Shown in pieces: positions 13,877 to 34,549 of a stretch of DNA of 64,000 nt. Under the pieces are notes generated by a model. It had not been told where the DNA came from. It worked only from the letters and a program-made list of their open reading frames with translations, and did no database searches. How positions within the stretch are numbered: the first letter of the stretch is position 1; each line of letters starts with the position of its first letter. The stretch is from the IMG/VR virus record IMGVR_UViG_3300011008_002732. One strand, written 5' to 3'. Source of the DNA: an uncultured virus (IMG/VR IMGVR_UViG_3300011008_002732). Its lineage: Duplodnaviria > Heunggongvirae > Uroviricota > Caudoviricetes. The position numbers were made by a program, and so were the translations under genes.

Positions 13877-13978
13877 TTAGTCGTGCATGAACACGAGTCC
13901 GGGAAGTGCAGTCTTCATAGCGGACTTGATGGAACTCACAGGGTACGGACTTGCGACATCGTTCACCTCACCGTCGTA
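13877..13978 (-). pseudogene. 3' fragment of the head decoration gene (YDGEVNDVASPYP...VFMHD-stop), separated from its 5' part by the inserted element
   Basis: In-frame continuation of the ORF at 34229-34549 through the shared 12-bp repeat (YDGE codons). Confidence 0.9.
13967..13978. repeat. att core, left copy (CTCACCGTCGTA)
   Basis: Identical to 34229-34240; extends to 15/16 matches as CTCACCGTCGTA[G/C]ATG. Confidence 0.92.
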
Positions 13979-14040
13979 GATGTTACACTTTTCTCGTATC
14001 TCGCTGATACACAACGGAAAGCGGATTTTCAAAAATACTC

Positions 14041-14061
14041 GGAGTAACAACGTGGTAACAA
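14041..14061. promoter_or_regulatory. Putative integrase arm-type sites (GGAGTAACAAC-GTGGTAACAA)
   Basis: Tandem GTAACAA repeats matching 34071-34091 near the other end of the element. Confidence 0.65.
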
Positions 14062-14342
14062 AACTGCACGAAAAGCTGTGCAAGCCGGACTCCCAAATCA
14101 TAAAAAAACATAAATCTTTCGGCCGTCACTCAGAATGGACTCCATCTGTGCAAATTTGCATAAACAGGAGGCTCGTCAGAGCTTCAGATGGGATGGTGGG
14201 TGTGGATGATGCCGAATAGTCCTCTTGAACCTCGCTTGGACTTTCTTGGACGCTCTATCTGCACACCTCCATTATGGTCTCAATAAGGGATGGCATGTGA
14301 ACCTCTTAGAACGGCTGTGAACAGGCTTGTAGGCAGGATAGC

Positions 14343-14380
14343 AAAAACCCTCACCCGTGCCTCTCGGCAAAGATGAGGGT
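14343..14380 (-). terminator. Rho-independent terminator at the left end of the element
   Basis: ACCCTCA..TGAGGGT stem preceded by an A-run on + (U-run on -), downstream of the 14452-14655 gene. Confidence 0.5.
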
Positions 14381-14451
14381 CGCAATGGCAGGCAGCACCT
14401 AAAAGCGTAGATTCTGAAGTCAAAAAGTGGTGCCCCGTACCTTCGGCTTCG

Positions 14452-14655
14452 CTAAACCGACATTCTCCAAAACTTGACGATCTCCAGCCCTGTGTAGAAC
14501 CTTCGTCCGTTTGACTTGCGGTACCGACAGCTGATACCTGTCGGGCCGATATTCGTGTATCTGCGCAGCGTGTTCCTGTGGACTCCGAGGATAGCCGCTG
14601 CCTCTTGTATGCTGTATCGTGCCGTTGGTGGCACTTGTGGCTCTTCGTTTACCAT
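14452..14655 (-). CDS. MerR/Xis-like HTH protein (putative excisionase)
   Basis: RYSIQEAAAILGVHRNTLRRY HTH; close to the att site. Confidence 0.7.
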   Translation of the reverse strand: MVNEEPQVPPTARYSIQEAAAILGVHRNTLRRYTNIGPTGISCRYRKSNGRRFYTGLEIVKFWRMSV

Positions 14656-14784
14656 ACGTGGATAGTTGTTAGGGTTGCACTACGATGTCCGCTTGTGGAG
14701 GCTGTGACGCAGCCTGTGGACGCTGTTACTCTCTTGGGATGGGAGGGAAAGGAGGCCGGACGATGCCAGCCCCCCTCCGATGGC

Positions 14785-15171
14785 CTATGCAGGTTCCTCA
14801 TTGCTCGTTGAGGCTGATTCCTCGGTAGCCAGCACATAGGCATCTGCGTTCTCCCTTGCCTCGCTGATGATGGCCGAGTAGCTTACATCGTTGCCGGCAC
14901 TGATGGCTTCGTCGATGCACTTCTCCAGGTTCTCGATGATGTTCTCGACGTGACTGCCAACGAGGTCTCGGTACACTGGCAGTCCGCACTTGCGGTTCCT
15001 GTAGTTCGTGACCTTCGACAGGAGGATGAAGATGTCGCTGACCATCTGCTTCAGCTCCTTGCTCTCGGACTCGTTGATAACGTTCATTACCTTCTCGACT
15101 TGCTCTTTGGTGGTGCAGGGAGCGGACTGCTGCTTGTTTCTTTTCATTGCTCTTGGGTTTTTATAGTTCAA
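14785..15171 (-). CDS. Hypothetical protein (start may be 15147)
   Basis: In operon; AAGAGCAATG leader at the 15147 start. Confidence 0.6.
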   Translation of the reverse strand: MNYKNPRAMKRNKQQSAPCTTKEQVEKVMNVINESESKELKQMVSDIFILLSKVTNYRNRKCGLPVYRDLVGSHVENIIENLEKCIDEAISAGNDVSYSAIISEARENADAYVLATEESASTSNEEPA

Positions 15172-15457
15172 CTTCTGATAACATGTCTATCACGTCCGCA
15201 TACTCGCTGAGTGCCTGCAAGGGCGCCTGCTCCTCTGCGGTGATGATGTCGTACTGCTCCACTGCTCTCGCCCACATCGTGAATGCGTCACAGAGGAATG
15301 ACTTGGCTTCGTCGTAGCCGTTCTCGTCCGTCAGCCTCTCAATGAGTGCTGCCAGCTGCTTGGGGATCATGGCCGATACCATCTGCCCCTTATTCGTGGG
15401 GGTGGGGATTGAACCCCTTGCCCCCGACTGTCTCTTTGGTGTTTCTTGCTTCTTCAT
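15161..15457 (-). CDS. Hypothetical protein
   Basis: 98 aa, AAGAGCAATG leader, in operon. Confidence 0.6.
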   Translation of the reverse strand: MKKQETPKRQSGARGSIPTPTNKGQMVSAMIPKQLAALIERLTDENGYDEAKSFLCDAFTMWARAVEQYDIITAEEQAPLQALSEYADVIDMLSEVEL

Positions 15458-15469
15458 TGCTCTTGCCTT

Positions 15470-16204
15470 TTATGCTAATCTGCAGTTGTACTGCGTGAAC
15501 TCTCTTATTCCGATGCCGAGGCCAGTGGTGACGAACCTGCGCATCTTCATTATCTCCTGCTTCGCTGATGGGATGCCGATGTTGAGCTTGCTGCTTACTT
15601 CGGCTGCACTCATCCCCTGCAGGTACCATACGAACAGGGTTGAGAAACGCTTCCTCCGCTTCTCGGTCTTGATGGTGGCGAACACACCCTTGACCATCTT
15701 ATTGAGCATCCTCGACTCATTGGCCTTGCGACGCTCGACCTCCTCGATGTCCTCCTGCTCTGAACTGAGGCAGTACTCGAGTGCTTCGATGTCGGTTTCC
15801 TGCTGATGCCTCTCAGCCTCGTTGTAGAACTGCCACTTGACCTGTGAGGTGAGGAACGAGTATGCGCTGCTGCTTCCGTCCTCCACGAACTTCTCGTAGT
15901 ATTGCGTGTAGGCTTCCTGTACGAGGTCGTCTGCCATTTCCGTGCAGTGGCACAGGGAGATTGCGTAGGCTCTTATCTTCTCGTACATCTTCAGAGGCTC
16001 GTCCGAGGGTCGGCAGGTCTGCGAACCCCTTGCCTGGTCTGCGTACTGATAGATGAACTCTCCGACCATCTTCTGCTTTCCCGTGAGGCAGTTGCATATC
16101 AGAGTGACCGACACCCCTGCCTTTTCGGCTGCGGCCCTGACCGTCGGGAAGGTGGCGGTCAGTATGCCGTTGGCCGTGTACTGATTGACTTGTCTTGCTC
16201 TCAT
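15470..16204 (-). CDS. NUMOD1-like domain fused to sigma-70/ECF-like domain
   Basis: N-terminal VNQYT..G..TFPTVRAAAEKAGV..ICNC (NUMOD1-like); ADDLVQEAY (region 2-like); C-terminal YLQGMSAAEVSSKLNI (region 4-like HTH). Confidence 0.6.
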   Translation of the reverse strand: MRARQVNQYTANGILTATFPTVRAAAEKAGVSVTLICNCLTGKQKMVGEFIYQYADQARGSQTCRPSDEPLKMYEKIRAYAISLCHCTEMADDLVQEAYTQYYEKFVEDGSSSAYSFLTSQVKWQFYNEAERHQQETDIEALEYCLSSEQEDIEEVERRKANESRMLNKMVKGVFATIKTEKRRKRFSTLFVWYLQGMSAAEVSSKLNIGIPSAKQEIMKMRRFVTTGLGIGIREFTQYNCRLA

Positions 16205-16216
16205 GGCTCCCGTGCT

Positions 16217-16549
16217 TTAGAAGTTGACGCTGATGAGGTTGGCTTTCTTGAAGCAGCGGTACTCCTGCTTCTCGGTGTCGAAGTAGGTCTGCAGGGTCTC
16301 GTTGGACTTCCGACCCGTTCCCTTGGTGGCGGGCAGGATGGAGGCTTGCAGGGTGCCGTAGGCTTCTCTGATGCTTCCGTCAACCTTTTGGAAGTGGAAC
16401 TTGACGATGCGGGTCTGCATCTGGATTCTCAACTTGGCGTTCAGCCATGCTAACTTTAAGGCTTCCGAGAGGGAAAGGCCGTTTTTCTTTACGAATTCCC
16501 ATGCGGTGCTCATTATCGAGCTGAGGGAGGTTTTGAACGTTGCTTTCAT
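16217..16549 (-). CDS. WYL-like SH3 beta-barrel protein
   Basis: VKFHFQKVDGSIREAYGTL and QTYFDTEKQEYRCFKKANL motifs, a common Bacteroidales phage family. Confidence 0.7.
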   Translation of the reverse strand: MKATFKTSLSSIMSTAWEFVKKNGLSLSEALKLAWLNAKLRIQMQTRIVKFHFQKVDGSIREAYGTLQASILPATKGTGRKSNETLQTYFDTEKQEYRCFKKANLISVNF

Positions 16550-16811
16550 CTTTTTGACTTTTAGAGTGAATTATTATTTGTTTGGTGCTGTAAAGGTAGC
16601 AATAAAAAACGGAATAACCAAATTTTACGTCGCAAAAATACTCTAAACACGTTATTTTTAACTTTTGCTCACTTTTAATCGGTCTGAATGACCTTTTTTG
16701 CACAATTTTGAACTTTATAACCCATTCAGATTACTTTTCTGCAAAAACATTTGGTCATTCGGCAAAAAACAACTACCTTTGTGCCATCAAAACATAATTC
16801 ATTCAAAGTAC

Positions 16812-17111
16812 ATGGAGATTACCAAGGTCATCAAGAGACACGGCTACAATCAGACACAGGTAGCCGAGCGAATGGGCATACTGCGCCAGTCCTTTGCCAA
16901 TCAGATCTGCAAGGGCAATCCGCAAGTCAGTTACCTCCGCAGGATAGCGGACATCATCGGAGCGGACATCACCGAGTTCTTCGAGGATGAGGTGCAGCAG
17001 TCCGAGGCACAGCAGCCAGCAGATGAAGGCCAGGCTCTCATCTGTCCTCATTGTGGAAAGGAAATCAAGGCTCACTTCACCATCGAGCCGCTGACAGGAA
17101 AGGAGGGCTGA
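16812..17111 (+). CDS. XRE-family HTH regulator with C-terminal zinc ribbon
   Basis: HTH (QTQVAERMGI..GNP..LRRIADIIG) plus CPHCG; divergent from the 16549 operon; start taken at MEITK. Confidence 0.8.
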   Translation: MEITKVIKRHGYNQTQVAERMGILRQSFANQICKGNPQVSYLRRIADIIGADITEFFEDEVQQSEAQQPADEGQALICPHCGKEIKAHFTIEPLTGKEG

Positions 17112-17113
17112 CA

Positions 17114-17413
17114 ATGGACGTCAAGAGGGTTATCAAGGAGCGTGGCTTCACGCTGACACAGGTATCGGAACTGACGGGCATACACGTCAAGACGCTTCCG
17201 GCCATGATTTCACCGAACCGCAACGTCACGGTCAACACCCTGCGCAAGGTTGCCGAGGCCATAGGCTGCAGCATCACGGACTTCTTCGCTGATGAGGCTC
17301 AGCCGTCCAGCACACCGACTGTCTCTGATGGAGCGGTACCAATCATCACCTGTCCGCATTGCGGCCACCAAGTCAAGGTCTGCGTCAAGGTCGAGCAGCC
17401 GGACACCAAGTAA
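17114..17413 (+). CDS. Second XRE-family HTH regulator with zinc ribbon (tandem paralog)
   Basis: MDVKRVIKERG..TLRKVAEAIGC..CPHCG. Confidence 0.8.
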   Translation: MDVKRVIKERGFTLTQVSELTGIHVKTLPAMISPNRNVTVNTLRKVAEAIGCSITDFFADEAQPSSTPTVSDGAVPIITCPHCGHQVKVCVKVEQPDTK

Positions 17414-17440
17414 GCTTATTCTTTCATCACTATCTCTTGC

Positions 17441-17490
17441 CACCACCTCTCACAAGTCTCTCATGGCTTCGGGAGGTGGTCTTTCTTTTC
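17441..17490 (+). terminator. Rho-independent terminator after the XRE pair
   Basis: ACCACCTCTC..GGGAGGTGGT stem followed by CTTTCTTTT. Confidence 0.6.
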
Positions 17491-18013
17491 CTCGCTGTTG
17501 TGGCTTGTGACGGCATTTCATACATGGGGTGGAGAAATGTAGGTCGGTGGCATAGGAACGGCTTAGAACGGGCATAGGAGGGCTGTGACAGGCTTTGCCC
17601 GTCCTATGGATGGTTAGGATATTCTTTGGAACCCACTCAAAATCTTAGCCTGTCCTGCCAACCCAAGAGGCCATACGGCACCAGGCATAGGATTCGCCAC
17701 CCCCATTCGTAGAGGTGAGGGAAAGGACGTGATTTCGTTCTTAGACGGGTCTTAGGCTCGCGTGGACGCGCTGATGGCATAGGGGTATTATGACCTCGAT
17801 AAGGTCTGCGGTGTGTCAGGCTTAGAACGTCTAAGAACAGTCTTAGGACAGGGCATAAAAAAACCGCCCGAACTTCTCAGTCCAAGCGGTCAGCCTCGGT
17901 GGCTACCAAATAAATAATAATTCACGCCTCAGTCAAGAGACGAAAACATGCCACTCCGGCCTATAGGGAGCAGGAGGCTCCGCTTTCGCGGTACACCCCC
18001 TGCGTGTAGTCCG

Positions 18014-18346
18014 TTACCAAAGGGCAACCTTGCCGATGGCTCCGAAGTCGATGGTGGCTGTCGCTACACCGAGGGCCTGGAACACACGGCTTATCGTCGG
18101 CAGGGTGATGTTGTTGCCTTTCTCCAGCCTTGAAATCTGAGCCTTCTTCACTCCGATGCGCTCACCAAGTTCCTCTTGCGTGAGTTCTTGCTGAAGCCTT
18201 GCTTTCTTGATGAGCTCGCCGATCTCGTATGCCTGTACCGACTTGGCCACCTCTGCCTCAAACTCATCCCTTTCGGGTGTGCCGACCTTTCCGATGCACT
18301 CGTCCAAGTGCTGCTCGAATGGTATCAATTTCATCTTCTTTGCCAT
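18014..18346 (-). CDS. HigA-like HTH antitoxin
   Basis: XRE HTH (LTQEELGERIGVKKAQISRLE) directly downstream of RelE-like toxin. Confidence 0.8.
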   Translation of the reverse strand: MAKKMKLIPFEQHLDECIGKVGTPERDEFEAEVAKSVQAYEIGELIKKARLQQELTQEELGERIGVKKAQISRLEKGNNITLPTISRVFQALGVATATIDFGAIGKVALW

Positions 18347-18349
18347 ATT

Positions 18350-18694
18350 CTATTCTCCTTTTGATTTGAAATACTCTTGTCTGATTCTCTCTGCCTTGGC
18401 TATCTCCTTGGATGGGGTCTTCTGAGTCTTCTTGACGATGCCGTGAGTGGCTATCACCAGCGTTTCCTCCTCAGTGTCCCAAAAGGCGAACAGCCGATAC
18501 TTGACCTTGTTGAACAGGGTGCGGAACTCCCAAATCTCGGTGCCTTCCAGCTTCTTGAACAACTCGGCATTCCTCTCTCCCTGCTGCACTCGCTTGATGT
18601 TGCTGTCAATCTTCTTGGCGGCTGCATGGGGAAGCCCCTTGATGAAGCTGTCCGCTTCCTCCGTCAATACCAAATTGAATATGCTGTTGCTCAT
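18350..18694 (-). CDS. RelE/ParE-family (HigB/Gp49-like) toxin
   Basis: IWEFRT..YRLFAF..THGIVKKTQKTP..EI..A motif; toxin-first gene order. Confidence 0.85.
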   Translation of the reverse strand: MSNSIFNLVLTEEADSFIKGLPHAAAKKIDSNIKRVQQGERNAELFKKLEGTEIWEFRTLFNKVKYRLFAFWDTEEETLVIATHGIVKKTQKTPSKEIAKAERIRQEYFKSKGE

Positions 18695-18951
18695 ATCGGA
18701 TTCCTTTTTTGTCGGTGCAAAGATACTACAAAGTTTACACCCAACGAAACTTTTTCTCGCTTTTTTGTATTCCAGTGCTAACTTTTAACACTTTTCCTGT
18801 GTGAAGTGAGCCGTTTTGCTCTCTGTGAGGGGTCTGTTGTGGCTTGTATGGCCGTTTGCCAGCCCTCGGTGGATAGTTGTAGGGGTGAGGGGCGAAACGA
18901 GCTTGTTGAGGCTTATTTGCCCCTCGGTGTTTCTTATTGCTCTTGCCCGTC

Positions 18952-19245
18952 CTATGCTGCCTGCTTGTAATACTTCTCCAGCAGATCTTCGCTGAAGTCG
19001 TTCTCGGTGTCCTCCCCATCCTCGTCGAAGCTGTCTGCCGATGTGACGCAGAGTGAGCGGCTTGTGACGATGTAGGCTCCCGTGCCGTTCATGTAACCGC
19101 AATGGAAGTCGTCCTCGACATAGCCTTCTTCTTCAGCCTGGTACTCGATGATGAGGGTTTCGCCATCCTTCTCGAACTCTATGGTTCCTGTGCCGACCTC
19201 TATTTGGTCGAGGATGCTTTGGTAGTCTGATTTCGTGAGCTTCAT
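18952..19245 (-). CDS. Hypothetical acidic protein under a helper-type promoter
   Basis: 97 aa; promoter/operator motif at 19287-19319 just upstream. Confidence 0.7.
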   Translation of the reverse strand: MKLTKSDYQSILDQIEVGTGTIEFEKDGETLIIEYQAEEEGYVEDDFHCGYMNGTGAYIVTSRSLCVTSADSFDEDGEDTENDFSEDLLEKYYKQAA

Positions 19246-19286
19246 AACTTCTTGACTTTTTGGTGAATTATTACTTATTTTGGTGC

Positions 19287-19319
19287 TGTAAAGTTAGTCA
19301 TTTTTTTGCAATTTACCAA
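19287..19319 (-). promoter_or_regulatory. Helper-type early promoter/operator copy inside the element
   Basis: TGTAAAGTTAGTCATTTTTTTGCAATTTACCAA, 30/33 identical to the helper motif at 37308 and 58908. Confidence 0.7.
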
Positions 19320-19639
19320 ATAAATCGGCTCAAAAATACTCTAATCAGATTATATTTAACTTTTGCTCACTTTGGAACTTTCTGATTACACTTTTGCTAA
19401 CTTTTGGTTCGCCCGATGAGGCTCGTAATGGCTTCGCAGGGATGGGGATGAGGAAACCGCTCTGAGTCCGGCTGCTGACCTTCATCGGAACAAAATCGGA
19501 ACACTTGCGCATGGCCTGTGCCGATAATGTGCGTTGCTCTCAATCACTTTCAAGGACGGGCTGTCACTTTACTCCCGATTCCTTCCGATTTCTCGATGCT
19601 TTTGCTTATCTTTGCACCCCGATAAATCATAGCAAAACG

Positions 19640-20053: not shown

Positions 20054-20358
20054 GCCTTGCATGGTTCAGCGATGGGAGCAGCCACCTCTCGCAGACGCTC
20101 CAAAGGGATGGTTCTGATGTCCTCGATGGCACACGTCTTACTCAGCCAATCTGCAAAGGTCTCACGGCCATCCGACCGCCAATAATACCTCGAATACAAC
20201 CTCTGCCTGAGCAAGCGCCTCTCCTTGTATTCCGGGTCTGCTTCCTCATGCTTTTTCAACCATGTCAGCTGCCACCTCGACCTGTTACTCTTGAAGCGGT
20301 CATACTGCTCTTGGGTATCGAAGTGCTCACGCTTGTACTTGTACTTCTTCTCGTTCAT
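20047..20358 (-). CDS. Hypothetical basic protein, paralog of helper gene 58987-59277
   Basis: Shared KYKREHFD, LRQRLYSRYYW.SDGR.TFA.WL and IEDI motifs. Confidence 0.8.
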   Translation of the reverse strand: MNEKKYKYKREHFDTQEQYDRFKSNRSRWQLTWLKKHEEADPEYKERRLLRQRLYSRYYWRSDGRETFADWLSKTCAIEDIRTIPLERLREVAAPIAEPCKAH

Positions 20359-27503: not shown

Positions 27504-27509
27504 GGCTGC

Positions 27510-28901
27510 TTAGATGTTGAGGCTGTTATCATCGACGTACTCCTCATGTACCGCCATTGGGTCTGAGGAAAGTCCTGCCCTGCGAACCGACTCTACATGA
27601 CCTACCAATGGCTTGTCACCGTTGGCTTTCATCCATTTCTCGATCTCCTGCTTCTCGTCGTCTTGGATAAACGGAGTGATGATGTGCTCTACGCTGATGC
27701 TGTCAAGCTCATTCTTCCATTTCACGTTCATCTGACCGAGGAAGGCCTTTATCACATTGCACTCCCTTTCAAGGAACTCTTCCCAAATACCTGCTTCCTC
27801 TCCTATGCGAAGGTGGGCATCCGTGAACATGGTCTGACGTGCCTCATAGCCGATGTTGCCGAGACCCTTCAGGTTCTCAAACGATATGTCGGGCATCTGC
27901 GACTGAAGGAAGAACAGGCGCACCAGCATATCGACATTGTACTTCAGCGCATCGATGGACTGGTTCCACGACACATAGCCTACATCGCCTCCGTTCTGCA
28001 AGCGGAATGCCCTGCGACTGTCGCCCTTGGCTTCTTCTCCCAACACTTGGCCGACAATCTTCAAGACGGGTGCTGAGTTGTATGCTATGACATCGCTGTT
28101 CCTCGACAAGGTGTACTCTATCTCCTCTCTGAGGTTGCTGAGGCCATGGTACACAGGAACGGGTCTTGACAGGTACACACCAGGTATCTTCATAATCGAA
28201 ATCTCCTCACCGCTGACAATCTCACCTTCTTCGGTCATGGCCATTGTGACTTCCTGCCATCCCTTGTCGGTCAGCTTCCAAATGTAGTGCCTGTCCGAAG
28301 TGTATGTCTCGAAGAAGGTCACAGTCCTCTCTCCGTCCTTCCTCGTGTACTCTAAGGACATCGCAAGCATGTTGTCCCTGTCATCAATGAAGGGGTACAG
28401 CTTGTAGCCCTCCATCGGGGAATACGTCTTACATTTCAACTTGTACTGCGAGTCAAAGCCGTAAAGGGTATTCGGCTTGTTAACGGCATACCATATCGTG
28501 AACACCTCGCAGGCTGCATAGTACGCAAGCCCTCTCTTGAGGTTCACGGCATCTATCCTCGCGTGCTTGTAGATGGCCTCCATCGCGCGGACAATCTGCT
28601 TTCTCGTCTCGTCCTCACCTACGTTGGTGTATGACCGCTTCACAGGAATGGAGAAAGTGTATTCGTTGAACCTGTTTGTCAGCAGCTTCTCCATGCCGAT
28701 GTAGATGCGGCTTGCCTTCTCAATGACACCATCCGAGCGTTGGCGGTCTTTACGGCCTATGAGGTCATGCACTATCTTGTGCTTGGTCGGCTCATAGTCT
28801 CTGAGCAGATCTTCCCATCTTGGTACGTCAACTGACTTCTTCCTCAGTTGGTTGATGATTGTGTCGGGGCTTTCGCTCCCTATCAGTTCTTGAATCTTCA
28901 T
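27510..28901 (-). CDS. SPP1-type portal protein encoded by the element
   Basis: 463 aa, colinear and highly similar to helper portal (e.g. YTLSRNSDVIAYNSAPVLKI, EIEKWMKANGDKPLVGH). Confidence 0.92.
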   Translation of the reverse strand: MKIQELIGSESPDTIINQLRKKSVDVPRWEDLLRDYEPTKHKIVHDLIGRKDRQRSDGVIEKASRIYIGMEKLLTNRFNEYTFSIPVKRSYTNVGEDETRKQIVRAMEAIYKHARIDAVNLKRGLAYYAACEVFTIWYAVNKPNTLYGFDSQYKLKCKTYSPMEGYKLYPFIDDRDNMLAMSLEYTRKDGERTVTFFETYTSDRHYIWKLTDKGWQEVTMAMTEEGEIVSGEEISIMKIPGVYLSRPVPVYHGLSNLREEIEYTLSRNSDVIAYNSAPVLKIVGQVLGEEAKGDSRRAFRLQNGGDVGYVSWNQSIDALKYNVDMLVRLFFLQSQMPDISFENLKGLGNIGYEARQTMFTDAHLRIGEEAGIWEEFLERECNVIKAFLGQMNVKWKNELDSISVEHIITPFIQDDEKQEIEKWMKANGDKPLVGHVESVRRAGLSSDPMAVHEEYVDDNSLNI

Positions 28902-28928
28902 ATTGCTTATTCGATTATCGTTTCATGT

Positions 28929-29591
28929 TCACTCCTGGGCATATATCAGCCTACGCCCTTTGGCTGTCTTGGTCCTGCCAATGCAGACGTCACGAATGAG
29001 GGCAGTAGAACAACTTAGGAACTCTCCGGCTTCCCTTGCATTGCTGAACGTGGCTTCGACCTCTCCATCATCAGTAAGCAGCAAAACCCTCTTGCCCTTG
29101 CCATAGCGAGGATGGTTCCGACTGTCTCTCATCCTCTCCTTGGCCTTGCGGCTTATAGAGGCATAGGCTTCCTCCGACAACGGACGCTTCATGCCCTTGT
29201 TCCAAGGCTCATGTCCTTTCGTACCCTCAGACAGGTTGCGCAGGTGGTTCGGGAAATTGCAGTTCTCCTTGGGGGTACACCAGCGCAGGTTCTCCACTCT
29301 GTTGTCGAGCGGATTGCCGTTGATATGGTCCACCTCCAGACTCTCCTCGCTCATGGATGGAGGTAGGGGGATGAAGTGCATGGCCACCAGCCTGTGAACA
29401 AACAGCCGTGTGCCATCACGGCCACCGAGAGTAACGTTCTGATAGACTCCGTTGGTCGAGCAGGAAAGCACCTTCTCGATGGGGTAGCGGAACTTGCCGC
29501 GACGAACGACCTTGGTTCTCCGCACCCTGCCGAGGTTGCTTATCTGATAGGCTCCCTCATAGCCTCGTATGTCCTTCCAATACTCCTGCAT
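28929..29591 (-). CDS. NUMOD4-HNH homing endonuclease
   Basis: EYWKDIRGYEGAYQISNLGRVR (NUMOD4); VHRLVA..VDHING..DNRVENLRW (HNH). Confidence 0.9.
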   Translation of the reverse strand: MQEYWKDIRGYEGAYQISNLGRVRRTKVVRRGKFRYPIEKVLSCSTNGVYQNVTLGGRDGTRLFVHRLVAMHFIPLPPSMSEESLEVDHINGNPLDNRVENLRWCTPKENCNFPNHLRNLSEGTKGHEPWNKGMKRPLSEEAYASISRKAKERMRDSRNHPRYGKGKRVLLLTDDGEVEATFSNAREAGEFLSCSTALIRDVCIGRTKTAKGRRLIYAQE

Positions 29592-30976
29592 TATCGTATC
29601 AGTTTATCCAGCTTCTTCTCACTCCTGGTCTTGCCGACCTTCATCTTCTTCCTGTAGTATGAGAGGGTGAAGTCCTTCTTTCCATGCACGGCTTCGAGGA
29701 TGGTCTCGTCAAGGCCGGGCACAGAGCAAAGGAAGTACACGTCGGCAGCTTCCTCGCGCTCCTTAGAAACAAGCCTGTTGCGACCCTGCTCATAGCTGAG
29801 GAACGAATACTCAAACGAGTAGAACACCAAAGCTTCTGCAGTATCGAGGCGCACACCTTCCCTTGCCCTTCTGACTTGGCAGATGAACACCTTGTCGGAT
29901 GAGGCTTGGAACTCTTCGGGGCTGTCCGTCCAATTCGGGAACCATTGCTTCAGCAGGTCGAACTCCGACTGATAGCAGTAGAACAAGGCCAGCTTCTTCC
30001 CTGCGAACTTCTGCTTGACGTACTCGCACTTGCTTGTATCAAGGATGAGGTGTGTGCCATCTTCGGCTATCACTGTGCCGCCCGAAATCTGATGCAGCTT
30101 GTCAAGCAGCTTGGCAGGGGTGTCACCGAGAATGACATGATCACCGACCTTGGCCACCTTCTTCGAGTAGAGGTCGTGCCAAATGACGCTCGTCCTCATG
30201 GGCATGGGAACCTTGCGGACGTGCTCTATGATGTTGGTGGAGAATCCGGCTTCACCCTGCGTGTACGACACGAACAGGTGGCTCGCATCCTCGTCGATGA
30301 GGCTCTTGTCTGCATCCGAGTAGTCCGTGATGCGATAGCCGTTCACCATCTTCTCCCTCTTGTTCACATACTCCACCGCCCACTTGTAGAACGTCTTGTA
30401 TGCTGCGAATGGCGACCTATCGCTGCACCACAGCTGATGATATATCTGCGAGTAGCTTTCGGGTGTCGGTGTGCCGCTGAGGAACAGCACAGGCTTACCC
30501 TTGCACTTCTCCTTGGCTGCTATCGTCCGCTTGCTTGGCTTGGGGTAGGCACCGAGGCAATGCGCCTCGTCGAGGATGATGAAGTCGTACTCGCCCGAAC
30601 ACTTGTGGACGCTCTCATAGTTCACGACCTCCAGCGAGTATGATGGATTGAGCAAGGCATAGTCCGACTTCACCGACGGGACGGCCTTTATCTTCGTGAC
30701 GAACAGCACCGACTTGGCACCGAACCTGTCTGCCGTGAGGAAAGCCGTGAGCGTCTTGCCCGTCCGGCACTCCATCGACAGGTAGCACAGGCCGAAGTCG
30801 TTCAGTATCTTCACCGCTTTGTCAGCGATGTCGTCTTGATAGGGCCGTATGACCACTTTTTCACTCCCTTGTGGGGTGTTGGTAGGGTTACAGGCAGAAA
30901 CAGGCTTAGACAGGCTGTGACGTGTCTTGTTGAGGCTTGTTGCTCTGGGTGTGGATATGGGTGTAGTCTTCTTCAT
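29591..30976 (-). CDS. SF2 (SNF2-like) helicase
   Basis: RPYQ, CRTGKT, ILDEAH, LSGTP motifs. Confidence 0.85.
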   Translation of the reverse strand: MKKTTPISTPRATSLNKTRHSLSKPVSACNPTNTPQGSEKVVIRPYQDDIADKAVKILNDFGLCYLSMECRTGKTLTAFLTADRFGAKSVLFVTKIKAVPSVKSDYALLNPSYSLEVVNYESVHKCSGEYDFIILDEAHCLGAYPKPSKRTIAAKEKCKGKPVLFLSGTPTPESYSQIYHQLWCSDRSPFAAYKTFYKWAVEYVNKREKMVNGYRITDYSDADKSLIDEDASHLFVSYTQGEAGFSTNIIEHVRKVPMPMRTSVIWHDLYSKKVAKVGDHVILGDTPAKLLDKLHQISGGTVIAEDGTHLILDTSKCEYVKQKFAGKKLALFYCYQSEFDLLKQWFPNWTDSPEEFQASSDKVFICQVRRAREGVRLDTAEALVFYSFEYSFLSYEQGRNRLVSKEREEAADVYFLCSVPGLDETILEAVHGKKDFTLSYYRKKMKVGKTRSEKKLDKLIR

Positions 30977-30987
30977 ACTCTTTCCGC

Positions 30988-31920
30988 TTAGAACTGACCT
31001 TCATAATCATCTGCGCACGTACCCGTGACCTCAGAACCTCTCCTGCGTTCCTGTGCGGCCAGCTTTGCAATGATGCCGGCAGCATCGTTAGCCCTTTCCG
31101 CTCTCCCTGCAGGTGCCGATGAGGGTTGGCGGTTGTCATAGTTGCCCTCCAGCACTTTCGGGAAGTTGTTCGGGCGCATGACCCAATCGAAGTCTGCCAC
31201 CCATGCCCTGTTGTTCGAGCCGTTGAGGAACTTCGAGTCAGCGGCCTTGTCTATGACCTTTCTGATTGCTTCCTTGCCGTACTCGGAGATACGGGCGCTG
31301 ATGGCTGTCTTGCGCTTCTTCGTCACTTGGCGGATGGGAGGTATCTGCTTGCCCGCCATCTTCTCGTTCCAATAGTCGGCCAGCTTCGAGAAATCGACAT
31401 CTGACTGCTTGGGGGCAACTTTCTTGGTTGGCTTGCTCGGTTCTTCACCGAAATCTTCATCAGAATTTGGATTTGGGTCGTTCCCTAACGACAAAACTTC
31501 TGAATGTAATGAAGAAGTTATATCTAAATCTACTCTCTGACTCTGACTCTTATTCTTATTCTTGGTTGAATTATCCAATAACTCAACCGATGGGTTGTTT
31601 TGGTTGTTTTGGGTTGAATTATCCAATAACTCACTATCTTCATCGTGCTTACGGGCATTGGAATTTCCCTTTGGAGCACCGCCCTTCCGTCCGTTCTCAC
31701 GATTGACCTCTGCTCTCTTGTCGGAGCGGAGCCAGTGCCTTTCTGCCTCGATGCACAGACTGATGAACACGGCTTGCGAGATAGGGTCAGCAAGCGTTGG
31801 CTTCACCCCCGTCTCAGCATACTCGAACAGGGCATCAAGGACATCGCCTTTCTGCTCCTGGGAAAGCACGTTCACCAGCTGATGCTTGTCGGAGTGGATG
31901 ATAAAAAAGTCATGTACCAT
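30988..31920 (-). CDS. Replication initiator-like protein (DUF6291-like N-terminus)
   Basis: LSQEQKGDVLDALFEY, NRENGRKGGAPKGNSNA, and C-terminal FLNG.N.RAWVADFDW..PNNF.KVLEGNY; internal direct repeats. Confidence 0.75.
   Translation of the reverse strand: MVHDFFIIHSDKHQLVNVLSQEQKGDVLDALFEYAETGVKPTLADPISQAVFISLCIEAERHWLRSDKRAEVNRENGRKGGAPKGNSNARKHDEDSELLDNSTQNNQNNPSVELLDNSTKNKNKSQSQRVDLDITSSLHSEVLSLGNDPNPNSDEDFGEEPSKPTKKVAPKQSDVDFSKLADYWNEKMAGKQIPPIRQVTKKRKTAISARISEYGKEAIRKVIDKAADSKFLNGSNNRAWVADFDWVMRPNNFPKVLEGNYDNRQPSSAPAGRAERANDAAGIIAKLAAQERRRGSEVTGTCADDYEGQF
31564..31633. repeat. Two 22-bp direct repeats GGTTGAATTATCCAATAACTCA (putative iterons/origin)
   Basis: Copies at 31564-31585 and 31612-31633 in an AT-rich patch inside the initiator gene. 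Confidence 0.6.
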
Positions 31921-31922
31921 AG

Positions 31923-32378
31923 TCAGCCTCCTTTCACCATGAACTTCTTCAGAGAGGTCCAAAATGTCATGTCACCTTCATCGTTCAGTTCCGGCTCCTT
32001 GCCGTAGAGCGCATACTCGTTGAGCCGTCTGACCCAACAGCCGTAGGTCTCGAAGTCATTGCCGATGCACGAGAATATCGTGAACATTCCGTCATAGAAC
32101 AGGTAGTAGCATCCTCTCATCAGCTGATCCCTCGACTGCTTGTCGGTGGCTTCTGTCCTCGACAGCAGGGGCAGGACGCTGACGAAGAATGTCTCAGCCT
32201 TTGGTGAACGGAACTCATCCGGCTTCACTCCCTCTACGCAATAGTTGAACACCGCGTGAATGTACTCACCATATTCCTCGTCATTCAGTCCGAGTGACGG
32301 GAGGAGGTGAAACTCGCTGTAGAACCTGCAGAAACTACTGCGAGGGAAAATCTTGTTTTTCTTACTTACTCTTGCCAT
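31923..32378 (-). CDS. Hypothetical protein with two DUF6291-like repeats
   Basis: LNDEEYGEYIHAVFNYCVEG and YGCWVRRLNEYALYGKEP resemble the initiator N-terminus; start taken at MARVSKK. Confidence 0.5.
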   Translation of the reverse strand: MARVSKKNKIFPRSSFCRFYSEFHLLPSLGLNDEEYGEYIHAVFNYCVEGVKPDEFRSPKAETFFVSVLPLLSRTEATDKQSRDQLMRGCYYLFYDGMFTIFSCIGNDFETYGCWVRRLNEYALYGKEPELNDEGDMTFWTSLKKFMVKGG

Positions 32379-32391
32379 GCCTTTCAAAATT

Positions 32392-32742
32392 TTACCTTGC
32401 CAAGTGGCTCGCTGCCGCCATGTCCGTCTCGTATGTGGATGCGAACCTGTTGCGGCCCATGTACTCGTCCAAGTCCTTCCTGTTGAAGAACAGCTTGCCC
32501 GAACCGCCATCCTCCGGCTTGGAGTATGGCACCTTGCTTTCTCTGACAAGCGCATACATCTTGTTCCTCGAATAGCCTGTGTACTCGCATGCTTCCTTCA
32601 AGGTGAGGAACTGCTTGAACGAACACTCCTTCAGACTGCAGACCTCATCGACCAAAGCCTCGATGATGGGGTTTGCAGCATTGTCGGGACACTCTGATTT
32701 CAGCTGTGCCACCTGTGCTCTGATTCTTGATATTGCGTTCAT
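32392..32742 (-). CDS. Excisionase-like HTH DNA-binding protein
   Basis: LTLKEACEYTGYSRNKMYALV..VPYSKP..KLFFNRKDLDEYM; downstream of integrase. Confidence 0.8.
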   Translation of the reverse strand: MNAISRIRAQVAQLKSECPDNAANPIIEALVDEVCSLKECSFKQFLTLKEACEYTGYSRNKMYALVRESKVPYSKPEDGGSGKLFFNRKDLDEYMGRNRFASTYETDMAAASHLAR

Positions 32743-32902
32743 AAACTTGATATGGGTTTTGTTGGTGCAAAGTTACAAAAAATGATTGAAATAAACGCAC
32801 TTTTTGTGAAAAAATCGCGCAATAGTTATCAATTTTTCACTTTTTTCAAGAAAAAGCGGTCATTGACAACCTGTTTACCCTGCTGATTACGCTAATTGCC
32901 TG

Positions 32903-34054
32903 CTAATCAAACGTAGGGAGCAGCTCGACGGCCTTCCGCTTGGAGGTGTCGAGAATCTTGGCATACACCTGTGTCTGAGTGATGTTCGTGTGGCCGAGCA
33001 TCTTGCTCACCGTGTAGAGGTCGATGCCCTTGCTGAGAGCCAGCGTTGCGAACGTGTGCCGTGAGGTGTGGAACGAGACGTGTTTGCCTATCCCTGCCCT
33101 CTTAGCCCACCTCTCGATGGAGCGGTTCGTGGTAGTCCTCGACACCCTCTGAGTGAACACCAGGCCCTTGCGCTCCTTCGACTTCGGCAGCAGGGCGATA
33201 GCGGCCTTAGACATCGGGAACTCAACCACGCGGCCAGTCTTGACCTGCTTCTTCTTCAGCACATACGTTCCGTCCTCGACGATGGTGATGTCCTCCCATC
33301 GGAGCGTATCGATGTCTGAGTGGCGCAAGCCAGTGGCACAGCCGAACAGGAACTTCTCCCTGCCTTGCCCTCGCATCTTCGTGGGGGTCTGATAGAGCTT
33401 CCGCAACTCGTCCTCGGTCAGATAGGACTTCTCAGCGACCTCCTTCTTCGGGATGAACTCCATCGGTATCTTGCAGATCGGGTTCAAGGGGATGATGTCG
33501 TCTCTGACCGCTCTGTTCAGCGTCGTGTTCAAGATGCAGTAGTACCGCTTCACGGCATTGGGCTTCAGCGTCCGAACCTTCTTCACGGGATGCGTCCTGT
33601 TGTACGCTTTTGGGGTTCTGAGGAAGTCAAGGAAGCCGAGGATGAACTGCTTGTCTATCATGGCGAACGGCAGCACGTTCTTACCCGTGTAGGCTTTCAT
33701 CTTCTTCGCCAGCGTCCCGGCCAGCTGGGTTGTCGTACTGCCATGCTTCTGACTCGCCTTTGAAAGACGCTCCAGGTACTCGTAGAAGTCCATGTTCACC
33801 CTCTCGAATGAACTGAAGCCGAACTGCCCGTTCTGACATTCGACTATGCGTTTCGACTTGATGGCCTCTGCAAGCCGCATGGTGTTCCTGTTCTCAACCT
33901 TTGCCTCCCTCGATGTCTCGGGCAGCAGATACAGGTGAAGGAACTCATACCGCCTCACTCCGAGGTGGTAGATGTCGAGGTACAATGACTGACCTCCATT
34001 CTTCATCGACTTCGAGCGAAGCCTGATGGTGGATTTGCTTTCACTTTTTTCCAT
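32903..34054 (-). CDS. int: Tyrosine integrase (Bacteroidales arm-binding/SAM-like type)
   Basis: SLYLDIY..RRYEFL arm-binding region; TGLRHSD, HTSRHTFA, LGHT..TQVYAK catalytic motifs; about 175 bp from the att core. Confidence 0.95.
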   Translation of the reverse strand: MEKSESKSTIRLRSKSMKNGGQSLYLDIYHLGVRRYEFLHLYLLPETSREAKVENRNTMRLAEAIKSKRIVECQNGQFGFSSFERVNMDFYEYLERLSKASQKHGSTTTQLAGTLAKKMKAYTGKNVLPFAMIDKQFILGFLDFLRTPKAYNRTHPVKKVRTLKPNAVKRYYCILNTTLNRAVRDDIIPLNPICKIPMEFIPKKEVAEKSYLTEDELRKLYQTPTKMRGQGREKFLFGCATGLRHSDIDTLRWEDITIVEDGTYVLKKKQVKTGRVVEFPMSKAAIALLPKSKERKGLVFTQRVSRTTTNRSIERWAKRAGIGKHVSFHTSRHTFATLALSKGIDLYTVSKMLGHTNITQTQVYAKILDTSKRKAVELLPTFD

Positions 34055-34070
34055 GTCAATTTTCAGTTTT

Positions 34071-34091
34071 GGAGTAACAACGGAGTAACAA
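34071..34091. promoter_or_regulatory. Putative integrase arm-type sites (GGAGTAACAAC-GGAGTAACAA)
   Basis: Matches 14041-14061. Confidence 0.65.
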
Positions 34092-34228
34092 CAAAAGTAC
34101 AACTATTGCACAAAATGACCAAATTTTACAAAAGAGGCTTCCGACCTTCACAGGCAGGAAACCCCGACAAATAAACGAATAAGCACCGATTATGCCATTT
34201 TGCTATATCTTTGTTTGCATGGGTGGCT

Positions 34229-34240
34229 CTCACCGTCGTA
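34229..34240. repeat. att core, right copy (CTCACCGTCGTA)
   Basis: Identical to 13967-13978. Confidence 0.92.
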
Positions 34241-34549
34241 CATGATTCCTACAAGAGGATAGTCAACGGGCTTGGTGGCGACTACAACACCGACATACTC
34301 GTAACCTTCGGGCAGAGAAGCATAGTTCTTGCCGCCGTCGGCAACGGGCATGGGCTTGTACAGGGTCTCGTCCTCGGTGCTGCGGATAACCACATGGCCA
34401 GCCTTGATGCACTTGAGGTCAGACGGGAAATCCGTCATGTCAAGTGTACGACCGCCCTTGATACCGGCACCATAATGGCGAATGACGATCGAATCGTTGG
34501 CCGAGTCGATACGCATTCCTTCTTGGTTCAGATTTGCTTGTGCGCCCAT
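34229..34549 (-). pseudogene. 5' part (107 codons) of the head decoration protein gene, interrupted by the element
   Basis: Sits after scaffold; GIKGGRTLD..IKAGHVVI..YEYVGVV..GIMYDGE; joining to 13877-13966 gives a 136-aa ORF directly upstream of the capsid gene. Confidence 0.88.

Follow-up and report, generated by a model that had tools for sequence, protein, structure and literature searches.

A split gene for a probable decoration protein

Why are the two ends of one phage head gene found 20 kb apart, and what does the DNA between them do to the phage that carries it? The gene lies in the window, the whole 64,000-nucleotide stretch that was analysed (IMG/VR record IMGVR_UViG_3300011008_002732). 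The surrounding phage, here called the helper, is an uncultured and probably temperate siphovirus of about 74 kb, a phage of Prevotellaceae or Bacteroidales. The initial annotation held that an integrated element splits the head decoration gene in frame and that excision would restore it. The relevant features are:

34229..34549, minus strand: 5' portion of the head decoration gene, comprising codons 1-107, with GIMYDGE as its last residues
13877..13978, minus strand: 3' fragment of the decoration gene, YDGE...FMHD and stop codon
34229..34240: core repeat at the integrase-proximal junction, CTCACCGTCGTA read on the plus strand
13967..13978: core repeat at the distal junction, CTCACCGTCGTA read on the plus strand
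13979..34228, minus strand: embedded element, 20,250 bp, with all annotated ORFs but one on the minus strand

Both reading frames described in the initial annotation, 107 residues ending GIMYDGE (34549-34229) and a fragment ending FMHD and a stop codon (13978-13877), were confirmed. Positions 13978-13880 of the minus strand encode YDGEVNDVASPYPVSSIKSAMKTALPGLVFMHD and the stop codon is 13877-13879, such that the rejoined gene has 107+33-4 = 136 codons and is interrupted at codons 104-107 by the 20,250-bp element (13979-34228). The claim that the core covers the YDGE codons and that joining gives a 136-residue ORF agreed with both profile registers and alignment. The reading frame of the 5' fragment continues through 12 element-derived codons beyond GIMYDGE to give a 119-residue product, the last 12 residues of which are unrelated to the decoration protein, and the hybrid ORF at the distal junction likewise has an unrelated N-terminus. 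The 119-residue ORF matched positions 1-109 of the 138 positions of the phrog_38330 profile (E 2e-30) and the C-terminal fragment matched positions 104-138 (E 2.5e-7). In an alignment with nine full-length homologues the two fragments tiled the protein, duplicating only the four core codons. The element is inserted inside the presumed head decoration gene.

The 12-bp direct repeat CTCACCGTCGTA is present in exactly two copies within the window, both on the plus strand, but the window contains 1,938 repeat pairs of 12-mers and a repeat of this length is not significant alone. It carries weight because of its register in the split gene and because independent contigs hold attP and attB forms (below). 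At the integrase-proximal junction nine other alleles retain their own Ala codon, which places the crossover in or 3' of GGTGAG (gene orientation). The attP sequence provides no replacement for the displaced gene end and thus the decoration gene stays disrupted until excision.

The designation as a decoration gene was also examined. The predicted model of the 136-residue protein (pLDDT 83.3, pTM 0.77) was compared with the PDB by Foldseek, and each of the top 10 rows was an entry for lambda gpD, phage 21 SHP or a capsid (probability 0.66-0.98, TM 0.40-0.57, E 0.02-0.14, none reaching E 0.001). The best matches were the lambda gpD and phage 21 SHP cement proteins, to which sequence identity was only 10-19%, and one homologue is named 'Head decoration protein' in UniRef. 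The split gene is thus predicted to encode a gpD-like decoration fold, a weak but consistent match. In lambda, gene D is located between the scaffold and capsid genes, and the 136-codon gene similarly sits between the scaffold-like and capsid genes of the helper:

34556..35206, minus strand: helper scaffold-like gene, with 126 bp (42 codons) missing at about 35185
12320..13810, minus strand: helper major capsid gene, HK97-type, with a C-terminal BACON domain

These two genes carry deletions in the window's helper copy that the initial annotation overlooked. In addition to the 126 bp of the scaffold-like gene, 77 bp of the capsid gene are missing at about 13851, a loss that takes away the start codon and some 22 codons. 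All four of the other records covering this stretch have the 77 bp, and sister contigs retain both the 77-bp and 126-bp stretches. As the capsid gene lacks a start and the scaffold gene lacks 42 codons, excision alone might not yield a working helper from this copy.

Intact genes, attB-like sites and an attP junction

Full-length uninterrupted homologues were abundant, some of them with YDGE. The decoration gene is whole in 33 relatives (8 viral, 7 genome and 18 metagenome loci). An uninterrupted gene followed by the capsid gene was found in 8 of 10 viral loci (of the other two, one comes from the sample of the window itself and one is a contig end), in all seven genome loci and in 18 of 19 metagenome loci, the remaining one ending at a contig edge. 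Locus L137 has the YDGE allele in a whole gene together with a capsid protein 94% identical to that of the window, and one element-free relative, a record of 74,120 bp, has terminal repeats and a completeness rating of 100%.

Runs X4, X5 and X6, which come from three other studies, contain contigs about 98-99% like the element. The comparison used the contigs of four public metagenome runs, from which depth and rare forms are not quantifiable. An X4 contig joins window positions 34199-34228 (30 exact letters) directly to 13967, the attP expected of a circular or tandem junction; it could derive from a tandem or from assembly of a circle. Depth on the helper bins in X4 was about zero at ≥90% likeness and the element may persist or spread there without the present helper. 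In X5 a 19,465-bp contig (depth 20.9) spans the distal junction and represents the occupied form, and a second one, of 371 bp and depth 4.2, passes from the capsid side across the core to a stretch that matches 34249-34266 with one mismatch. This is an attB-like empty site, although a never-occupied helper could yield the same contig. Run X6 has the element at the same site, with contigs that also cross the distal junction, in a helper only patchily 90% alike. An attP junction and an attB-like site, as predicted for excision, were recovered from runs other than that of the window.

Gene content of the element

The element is co-oriented with the helper late genes, the minus strand carrying its integrase, Xis-like and replication genes alike. 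Its order of zones is integrase plus HTH_17 protein, replication zone and captured late genes:

32903..34102, minus strand: tyrosine integrase, Arm-DNA-bind_5 (E 4e-27), Phage_int_SAM_5 (E 1e-12) and Phage_integrase (E 2e-12) domains, phrog_1
32392..32742, minus strand: HTH_17 excisionase-like protein adjoining the integrase, E 6e-11, phrog_66
30988..31962, minus strand: replication initiator, DUF6291, DnaD-like/O-like PHROGs
29591..30976, minus strand: SNF2/ResIII-type helicase (family matches)
28929..29591, minus strand: NUMOD4-HNH homing-type endonuclease (family matches)
27510..28901, minus strand: portal protein, a captured allele with 72% identity to that of the helper (41958-43436)
27252..27503, minus strand: VRR-NUC nuclease (family match)
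26480..27226, minus strand: phrog_11996 protein, 36% identical to helper 9294-10037
20920..26202, minus strand: tape measure protein, 1760 residues (helper counterpart, 1876 residues)
19423..20077: variable cargo spot, 653 bp whose place is taken in X5 and X6 by about 2,160 letters
18014..18694, minus strand: Gp49 (HigB-like) and HTH_3 pair, toxin-antitoxin-like cargo (family matches)
14452..16549, minus strand: distal block of WYL_2 protein, sigma-like HTH protein, small ORFs and HTH_17/MerR-like protein

The integrase domain set is typical of Bacteroidota integrases. The closest full-length relatives (46-48% identity) are the integrases of elements in two proviruses, G007 and G008, and the best match among GenBank phage records (38.5%) is from human faecal contigs. 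The helicase shares 64-65% identity with its counterparts in the G007 and G008 elements, and 65-66% with those of the ordinary phages L099 and L102. The phrog_11996 protein would be chaperone-like by position only, as its helper counterpart immediately precedes the tape measure gene. The N-terminus of the element tape measure protein is 55-60% identical to those of uninterrupted helper relatives, and the gene order of the distal block is also found 3' of TerL in the ordinary phages L156, L159 and L160. The structural genes are ordinary helper-family alleles; the ancestry of the element is ambiguous and a reduced prophage also fits.

Family and profile searches recognised no capsid, terminase, tail/tail-tube or lysis family among the 25 element ORFs, of which 10 lack any family match, and no recognisable terminase or packaging site common to the helper was found in the window's element. 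With this gene content the element fits a satellite, which, together with its co-orientation inside the late operon, agrees with the initial annotation.

Element ends and late transcription

The initial annotation described matching tandem repeats at 14041 and 34071 and a terminator-like hairpin at about 14343 that would block read-through into the capsid and tail genes. The end features are:

34071..34092, plus strand: two exact tandem GGAGTAACAAC units, immediately 3' of the integrase promoter-like box
14041..14062, plus strand: one exact GGAGTAACAAC and a degenerate unit, distal end
34130..34165, minus strand: terminator-like hairpin with U-run, located after the truncated decoration ORF and ahead of the integrase promoter-like box
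14343..14381, minus strand: terminator-like hairpin (stem 14381-14348) and U-run (14347-14343) 3' of the last gene of the element
32766..32789, minus strand: promoter-like 24-nt motif upstream of the Xis-replication genes

The repeats form an exact pair at the right end, but the second unit on the left (14052) is the degenerate GTGGTAACAAA. The three exact copies of GGAGTAACAAC (14041, 34071 and 34082) compare with 0.78 expected, and three were reached in 2 of 100 shuffles. In the G007 and G008 elements, too, a TTGTTACT-type word recurs at either end. The window's repeats are candidate arm-type integrase sites.

The distal hairpin has the stem and U-run claimed for it and its 50-nt fold gave -22.9 kcal/mol, but a simple terminator scan did not flag it; the 81-nt fold had a z of -1.88, with 9 of 200 shuffles equally stable. 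At the corresponding place the L153 contig has a hairpin of different sequence (-17.6 kcal/mol), G007 has only a weak one and none was found in G008. The proximal hairpin (34165-34134) has 13 base pairs in two stacked stems followed by UUUUG and would act as a terminator. We take TAnnTTTG to be the Bacteroidota-type -7 promoter box, and none of the 16 minus-strand boxes falls within 1-13978, which comprises the 14 kb of downstream capsid and tail genes. The hairpins at both ends and the lack of a downstream -7 box support, at the motif level, the proposed polar block, and it is plausible that the integrated element impedes capsid and tail transcription in this way. The competing prospect, that a promoter in the left end of the element transcribes these genes regardless of excision, found one outward-facing full match (14030-14037), but its TA is lost in all three other variants of the element (X4, X5 and X6).

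The 24-nt motif also occurs at helper sites 43424-43447 (before the portal gene) and 52570-52593, giving three matches versus 0.01 expected, and precedes the portal genes of L005, L006, L010 and L129.

Other alleles and related elements

At least nine other decoration-gene alleles are fused to the same element end as in the window. In nine distinct proteins from outside the window the C-terminus is the element-derived SHPCKQRYSK(MA/LT), with YAGE in eight and YDGE in one, and three further clusters are cut after GE and carry other tails. The G007 element (20,273 bp, 26-bp direct repeat) and the G008 element (19,745 bp, 17-bp core with one mismatch) split the capsid gene at AADYVA, the decoration gene being intact. 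The G008 element carries TerS/TerL-like genes and the tape measure gene of G007 is split (360 + 1260 residues). In the single contig L153 a related distal end abuts scaffold codon ~44, and this type apparently splits the scaffold gene. The window, G007 and G008 elements, of 19.7-20.3 kb, have a common core gene order with protein identities of 46-66%, key genes are co-oriented with the interrupted gene also in G007, G008 and L153, and all insertion sites seen fall in head genes.

A model and its alternatives

Given the junctions, intact homologues, attP and attB forms, recurrence in other alleles and related elements, all observed in silico, we consider it likely that the 20,250-bp DNA is a site-specific integrative element that depends on the surrounding phage for particles, which fits a satellite embedded in its helper. 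The element tyrosine integrase would recombine the 12-bp core in codons 104-107 of the gpD-like decoration gene. Integration would truncate that gene and, through 20 kb of DNA and two terminator-like hairpins, part the scaffold-decoration promoter region from the capsid, connector, tail and tape measure genes. Upon induction the integrase and Xis-like protein, from an operon bearing the promoter-like motif also present at the helper portal operon, would excise the element as a circle, re-forming the 136-codon gene and reconnecting the late operon. The element would then replicate with its own initiator and helicase and be packaged in helper-made particles, possibly with its own portal and tape measure alleles. 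The interpretation given in the initial annotation is thus partly supported.

It seems unlikely, although by no means far-fetched, that the element is instead a reduced or defective helper relative or another selfish element whose insertion merely inactivates the prophage, with no evolved coupling of excision to virion production. The ordinary helper-family origin of its portal, chaperone-like and tape measure genes, the synteny that links its replication block and distal block to ordinary phages (L099, L102, L156, L159 and L160), the split G007 tape measure gene and the presence of the element in X4 without a helper 90% alike would all suit such a relic, as would the further lesions in the window's helper, but the 77 bp of capsid start are present in all four other covering records. 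Decay also sits poorly with three elements that keep core order at 46-66% identity, with an end joined to at least nine further helper alleles, with the existence of attP and attB forms and with sites that are in every case in a head gene and co-oriented.

Co-orientation with the late genes, the promoter-like motif common with the helper and a similar G+C content could also be those of an intervening sequence that a single phage excises during development, rather than of a separate parasite. This is very improbable given the 33 helper relatives that lack the element, including the 74,120-bp record, and the near-identical element found in diverged helpers and alone as attP. Finally, the IMG/VR region consists of two contigs meeting inside the integrase gene and 12-mer repeats are common by themselves, but a chimera of two unrelated contigs fused at a short common word is scarcely credible: independent contigs hold each junction (G001 the distal, _000354 (L003) the proximal), X5 and X6 contigs from other studies span the distal junction, and the fragments tile the gene to the codon.

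Comparison with known systems

PICIs have integrase, regulator and replication modules plus some phage morphogenesis or packaging genes, the helper supplying the remaining particle. Classical PICIs and cf-PICIs integrate at chromosomal sites, and cf-PICIs encode a full capsid set. The likely satellite described here has no capsid gene, and the captured genes are portal and tape measure (in G008, TerS/TerL-like). Gene-splitting switches include B. subtilis skin in sigK, Listeria phi10403S in comK and SpyCIM1 in mutL. In these, as here, precise excision repairs the interrupted gene, but they interrupt a bacterial gene whereas the present element interrupts a structural gene of another virus. This class of switch has been termed 'regulated gene integrity' (PMC10111431, section 22).

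For the HE-PICIs of Enterobacterales, the concept of a helper-embedded satellite has been in print since 2023, the prototype being Eco567.11capE in prophage 50icd (Tommasini, Mageeney & Williams 2023, PMC10111431). According to the available part of that paper, the survey covered proteobacterial genomes only, the elements studied were enterobacterial and matches outside Enterobacterales fell below the cut-off; 'Bacteroid', 'Prevotella', 'decoration' and 'tape measure' each have zero occurrences in that text (PMC10111431). Three traits of the HE configuration as defined there are seen here: integration in a late gene, co-orientation and an attP without replacement sequence, such that the target gene is truly disrupted and excision would restore it (PMC10111431). 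As with HE-PICIs, several different late genes serve as sites for related integrases, late genes of the helper have been captured and an HTH excisionase-like gene adjoins the integrase (PMC10111431).

The present element nevertheless appears to belong to a separate Bacteroidota lineage, and it sits in a large gut-bacterium phage of a Prevotella-type lineage unrelated to the E. coli phages. Unlike the HE-PICIs as described in the same part of the source, it has an integrase with Bacteroidota-type arm and SAM_5 domains, conserved capture of chaperone-like and tape measure genes, a size of about 20 kb versus 11 kb for 11capE, and a DUF6291/DnaD-like initiator with an SNF2 helicase in place of a primase (PMC10111431). 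The four-zone layout of Gram-negative PICIs consists of int-AlpA, a Bro-N/immunity zone, a primase replication zone and a late zone, and searches of the element at E ≤ 0.001 gave no match to a Phage_AlpA, Bro-N or primase family. Terminator-like hairpins are present at both ends of the element, whereas the available text on HE-PICIs proposes helper late read-through into the satellite (PMC10111431).

An element splits the decoration gene of the helper in frame

The initial annotation held that an integrated element splits a head decoration gene of the helper (the surrounding phage) in frame, and this was borne out. The core CTCACCGTCGTA is found in the whole window solely at 13967-13978 and 34229-34240. 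The 5' fragment of the gene (34549-34229, - strand) codes for 107 residues, the last being GIMYDGE, and its frame extends 12 codons into foreign sequence to give a 119-aa ORF. The 3' fragment (13978-13880, - strand) codes for YDGEVNDVASPYPVSSIKSAMKTALPGLVFMHD followed by a stop codon. Both fragments match phrog_38330 (138 positions), over profile positions 1-109 and 104-138. Upon alignment with nine natural full-length homologues the fragments tiled the protein, with the four core codons as the sole duplication. As the window holds 1,938 pairs of 12-mer repeats, the core repeat by itself means little; its weight lies in its position in the gene and in the independent evidence from intact relatives and from contigs carrying attP (the joined ends of the element) or attB (the empty helper site).

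An AlphaFold model of the decoration protein (52-sequence alignment) had a pLDDT of 83.3 and a pTM of 0.77. The best ten PDB matches of the model comprised solely entries for lambda gpD, phage 21 SHP or the capsids of YSD1 and Sf14; probabilities were 0.66-0.98 and TM-scores 0.40-0.57, but E-values only 0.02-0.14. The gene lies between the scaffold-like and capsid genes. Given the model matches and this position, the product of the split gene can reasonably, if not conclusively, be called a gpD-like decoration protein.

Relatives of the helper were sought in IMG/VR, species genomes and JGI metagenome contigs by use of the N-terminal decoration fragment or an alignment. Full-length uninterrupted homologues of the joined 136-aa protein were found in all three collections.

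Loci of helper relatives found with the decoration protein
IMG/VR: 10 loci; 8 uninterrupted (136-aa gene), 1 from the window's own sample, 1 ending at the contig end
Species genomes: 7 loci; 7 uninterrupted, with the capsid gene directly after in each
JGI metagenome contigs: 19 loci; 18 uninterrupted, 1 ending at the contig end

One of the seven genome loci is from a Prevotella sp. MAG (82% identity) and the others are from Parabacteroides faecalis, Muribaculaceae, Paludibacteraceae, Segatella copri and two contigs of a bin labelled Bifidobacteriaceae. One uninterrupted metagenome locus (L137) shares the YDGE allele of the window, and its capsid protein has 94% identity to that of the window. 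A search of proteins gave 318 decoration homologues at E <= 0.001 among 329 candidates, mostly of 130-136 aa, one of which carries the UniRef name 'Head decoration protein'. The helper relatives are 68-74 kb in size; one of 74,120 bp has terminal repeats and is rated 100% complete, and three related records are classed as proviruses. An ORF of ~405 aa with a weak integrase match was present in each of five relatives, scoring above the Pfam cut-off in one. The best identity of the helper TerL among GenBank phage records was 30.6%, and by this measure no characterised phage is close to the helper.

Layout and gene content of the element

The element (13979-34228, 20,250 bp) contains the following features, reading along the - strand.

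34165-34134, - strand: terminator-like hairpin, the first feature
proximal end, before the integrase gene: promoter-like box, then two exact GGAGTAACAAC units
after the GGAGTAACAAC units, - strand: tyrosine integrase with Arm-DNA-bind_5 and SAM_5 domains
after the integrase, - strand: HTH_17 Xis-like protein
after the Xis-like gene, - strand: DUF6291/DnaD-like initiator, then SNF2-type helicase
after the helicase, - strand: NUMOD4-HNH endonuclease
after the endonuclease, - strand: portal protein, 72% identical to the helper portal
after the portal, - strand: VRR-NUC nuclease
after VRR-NUC, - strand: phrog_11996 protein, 36% identical to the protein preceding the helper tape measure gene
after the phrog_11996 gene, - strand: tape measure protein of 1760 aa, 34% and 26% identical to the 1876-aa protein of the helper
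19423-20077, after the tape measure gene: variable spot
after the variable spot, - strand: Gp49/HTH_3 pair
distal block, - strand: WYL_2, sigma-like HTH protein and HTH_17/MerR-like protein
14381-14343, - strand: strong hairpin with U-run, at the distal end

Among the 25 element ORFs scanned there was no match to capsid, terminase, tail-tube or lysis families, and 10 ORFs had no match at all. A PADLOC search of the element for defence systems gave only generic HTH, homing-endonuclease and weak matches, and in a blastn comparison aimed at a packaging site common to element and helper, the two shared no more than the portal gene, one small gene and some promoter-like stretches. The G+C content of the element resembles that of the helper. 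The N-terminus of the element's tape measure protein shares 55-60% identity with the corresponding part in four uninterrupted relatives, and the tape measure of one locus (L007) is a mosaic of element and helper types. The structural genes of the element are ordinary alleles of the helper family.

At the variable cargo spot (19423-20077) 653 bp are replaced by ~2,160 other letters in contigs of two runs from other studies (X5 and X6), and contigs of the source-sample run (X1) also break nearby, around 18422-20351. The spot adjoins the sole annotated plus-strand ORF of the element (19505-20053, no family match). A 54-nt stretch, 83% identical between 19271-19324 and 44807-44858, precedes one small ORF of the element (start 19245) and one of the helper (start 44774) and may be a second regulatory sequence common to the two.

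Junctions in other runs and in other proteins

Four runs, X1 and three of other studies (X4, X5 and X6), were compared as Logan contigs. The junctions lie 20,274 bp apart; loose contig ends at one junction were searched, and uncovered parts of a run were not counted as absence. The X1 run contained a contig crossing the distal (capsid-side) junction. In X4 (2025) a 6,038-bp contig of depth 24 covers 13967-18549 and runs on leftward into exactly the 30 letters of window 34199-34228, which is the attP junction and would denote a circle, tandem or concatemer; the X4 helper bins at >=90% likeness were about empty. X5, a faeces study of 2020, gave both forms of the site: a 19,465-bp contig (depth 20.9) crosses the distal junction, and a 371-bp contig (depth 4.2), which starts on the capsid side, passes the core and ends in 18 letters that match 34249-34266 with one mismatch, giving the empty site. 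X6 (2019) contains a 48-kb contig with the element ~98-99% alike at the same site, the helper being only patchily 90% alike. By shared words the element was recognised in runs from 17 studies, mostly of animal gut, four runs being those compared in contigs; it may hence be a common player in Prevotella phage ecology.

Nine distinct proteins from outside the window have SHPCKQRYSK(MA/LT), a tail derived from the element, at their end; the contigs with such 119-aa junction proteins include ones of 195,801 (the longest), 123,619, 96,314 and 82,007 bp. In three more protein clusters the break follows the same GE, but the tails differ (RYPN, KYPA). As the helper's own Ala codon is kept at the proximal (integrase-side) junction, the crossover must take place in or 3' of GGTGAG. 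The Ala allele (YAGE, codon 105) was considered as an escape from integration because Ala is found in all eight uninterrupted viral relatives, as against Asp at the two junctions of the window. This idea was rejected: eight of the nine junction proteins with the element tail have YAGE (the other has YDGE), and uninterrupted YDGE alleles exist (the homologous proteins P0053 and P0065, and L137).

Related elements in other head genes

A search with the helicase led to two IMG/VR proviruses, G007 (75,116 bp) and G008 (84,582 bp), in which the decoration gene is intact and the capsid gene is split at the codons AADYVA. The G007 element is 20,273 bp long with a 26-bp direct repeat, and that of G008 is 19,745 bp long with a 17-bp core having one mismatch. 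Their integrases are 46-48% identical to that of the window over the full length, other IMG/VR integrase matches reaching at most 40% over part of the length. With the window integrase alone as an IMG/VR query, nothing but its own contigs and relatives of no more than 40% identity came up, and an alignment of the three integrases found only the same three records. The three elements share the order integrase, HTH_17, initiator, helicase, VRR-NUC, chaperone-like, tape measure and WYL_2, and TTGTTACT-type words are repeated at both ends of each. The G008 element lacks the portal gene and has in its place DNA-modification genes (TAGT glycosyltransferase, ParB_N), a TerS-like gene and a 505-aa TerL-like gene. 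A Segatella copri prophage has a decoration protein sharing 77% identity with that of G007.

The tape measure gene of the G007 element (L100:12391-17116) consists of overlapping 360-aa and 1260-aa ORFs, that of G008 being one 1601-aa ORF; the split is likely a frameshift or sequencing error.

On a metagenome contig of 158,283 bp (L153, positions 1-2500) a related distal block (sigma-like 64%, HTH_17 73%, a hairpin with U-run and a TTTGTTACTCC word) directly adjoins the scaffold gene near codon 44, with an intact decoration gene downstream. From this one junction, scaffold would be a third target gene of the element family. The sigma-like distal gene as query matched itself only. WYL_2 as query gave 335 relatives with no new embedded case in the 80 loci kept; it is widespread among phages and no specific marker of the elements.

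Promoters and terminators

Bacteroidota promoters have the consensus TAnnTTTG (-7 box) with an upstream TTTG. By this consensus there are 16 -7 boxes on the - strand and none in 1-13978, the last before the split gene being at 35315-35322, before the scaffold gene. In the IMG/VR record nearest to the window (G001) a gap of 35 nt separates the stop codon of the decoration gene from the start of the capsid gene. Given this spacing and the lack of a -7 box in 1-13978, the capsid, tail and tape measure genes probably need promoters upstream of the insertion, and two putative terminator hairpins intervene. The proximal hairpin, as a putative terminator, would shield the integrase gene from helper read-through. 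The sole outward-facing full promoter motif (14030-14037) was downgraded because it loses its TA in X4, X5 and X6, where the first -7-box base differs, and no such motif was found at the distal ends of the G007 and G008 elements.

The 24-nt motif TCAAnCnTnTTTTGTAnCTTTGCA has three sites in the window, versus 0.01 expected: before the Xis-replication genes of the element, before the helper portal gene and at 52570-52593. Similar motifs precede the portal genes of four of the 19 loci scanned (L005, L006, L010 and L129).

The initial annotation had gone on to propose that excision restores the gene and that the helper cannot express its structural operon normally until then. The split gene itself is confirmed, and the structural interpretation is supported by the intact relatives and the attP and attB contigs; the regulatory interpretation, from sequence features, is plausible. 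We infer the polar block, timing, packaging and satellite status of the element.

Relation to helper-embedded PICIs

Embedding in a helper is not new in principle. Tommasini, Mageeney and Williams (2023; PMC10111431) described helper-embedded PICIs (HE-PICIs), with 491 enterobacterial elements mapped to 14 sites in nine lambda-cognate late genes. These elements share the orientation of the late genes, bring about 'regulated gene integrity' and carry captured late genes. The element of the window matches the HE-PICI configuration as presented there, that of embedding in a helper late gene, a likeness of layout that need not mean membership of the HE-PICI integrase clade or the PICI family. The same source proposes helper read-through into the satellite, whereas the proximal hairpin seen here would do the opposite. 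A search of the literature by terms and passages found no Bacteroidota helper-embedded satellite.

A joint reading, which we put forward tentatively and consider rather doubtful as a whole, is that helper-embedding arose independently in Bacteroidota, in a clade of ~20-kb satellites of Prevotellaceae siphoviruses whose integrases would have been repeatedly retargeted to head genes (scaffold, decoration and major capsid). Terminators would insulate the elements and leave the helper capsid-to-tail operon silent until exit, and a copy of the helper portal-operon promoter would time excision. The chaperone-like and tape measure genes always carried, plus portal or terminase genes, would serve satellite-specific particles, and with a gpD-like cement protein as target, stable packaging may be further biased in favour of the small genome of the satellite. 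The satellites described to date inside a helper late gene are all from lambda-like prophages of Enterobacterales. Another lineage, unrelated to these and living in Bacteroidales of gut and rumen, differing in integrase type, helper type, size and cargo, would make the strategy general and convergent, beyond one integrase clade. For virome annotation, 75-95-kb composite "proviruses" in which portal or tape measure genes are duplicated and the capsid or decoration gene looks "broken" would then be two nested elements rather than damaged phages.

Deletions and other features of the helper

Relative to otherwise identical sister records the window has two deletions, of 77 bp and 126 bp, which may be rare variants or assembly faults; if real, they impair the window's helper copy regardless of the element. 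The 77-bp deletion at ~13851 (between 13811 and 13876) takes the capsid gene start codon and ~22 codons, and what is left of the capsid ORF follows the decoration stop codon in the reading frame of the decoration ORF. The missing stretch is present in G001, X1, X5, X6 and five relatives. The 126-bp gap at ~35185 is in frame, removing 42 codons of the scaffold-like gene (34556-35206), and the stretch is present in an otherwise 100% identical IMG/VR contig (_000354, L003) and in relatives. This gap ends ~20 nt from where the L153 element abuts the scaffold gene.

The helper major capsid protein (12320-13810) has a C-terminal BACON domain (residues 441-493, 27.1 bits versus a cut-off of 25). In the 879-aa head-morphogenesis protein (37735-40374) the C-terminal 550 aa are without a family match, and for the N-terminal third there is an additional match to a PHROG labelled 'Bxa ADP-ribosyl transferase' (E 1.7e-57). 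At 47182-57022 lie genes for ATP-grasp, a ParB-like nuclease, a 696-aa amidoligase/DAM-like/GNAT-phage fusion and an octopine-dehydrogenase-like protein, and further for DUF488, ThiF, a prokaryotic E2, Prok_Ub and PRTRC_E; by these matches the region resembles a module for DNA hypermodification together with a ubiquitin-like PRTRC module. In G001, ~6-7 kb past the left end of the window, a 480-aa reverse transcriptase (L092:3326-4768; RVT_1, E 8e-10) is encoded among the helper distal tail genes and may be part of a diversity-generating retroelement. The helper also has genes for tRNA-Gly(TCC) and tRNA-Asn(GTT), at 10039-10113 and 51996-52070.
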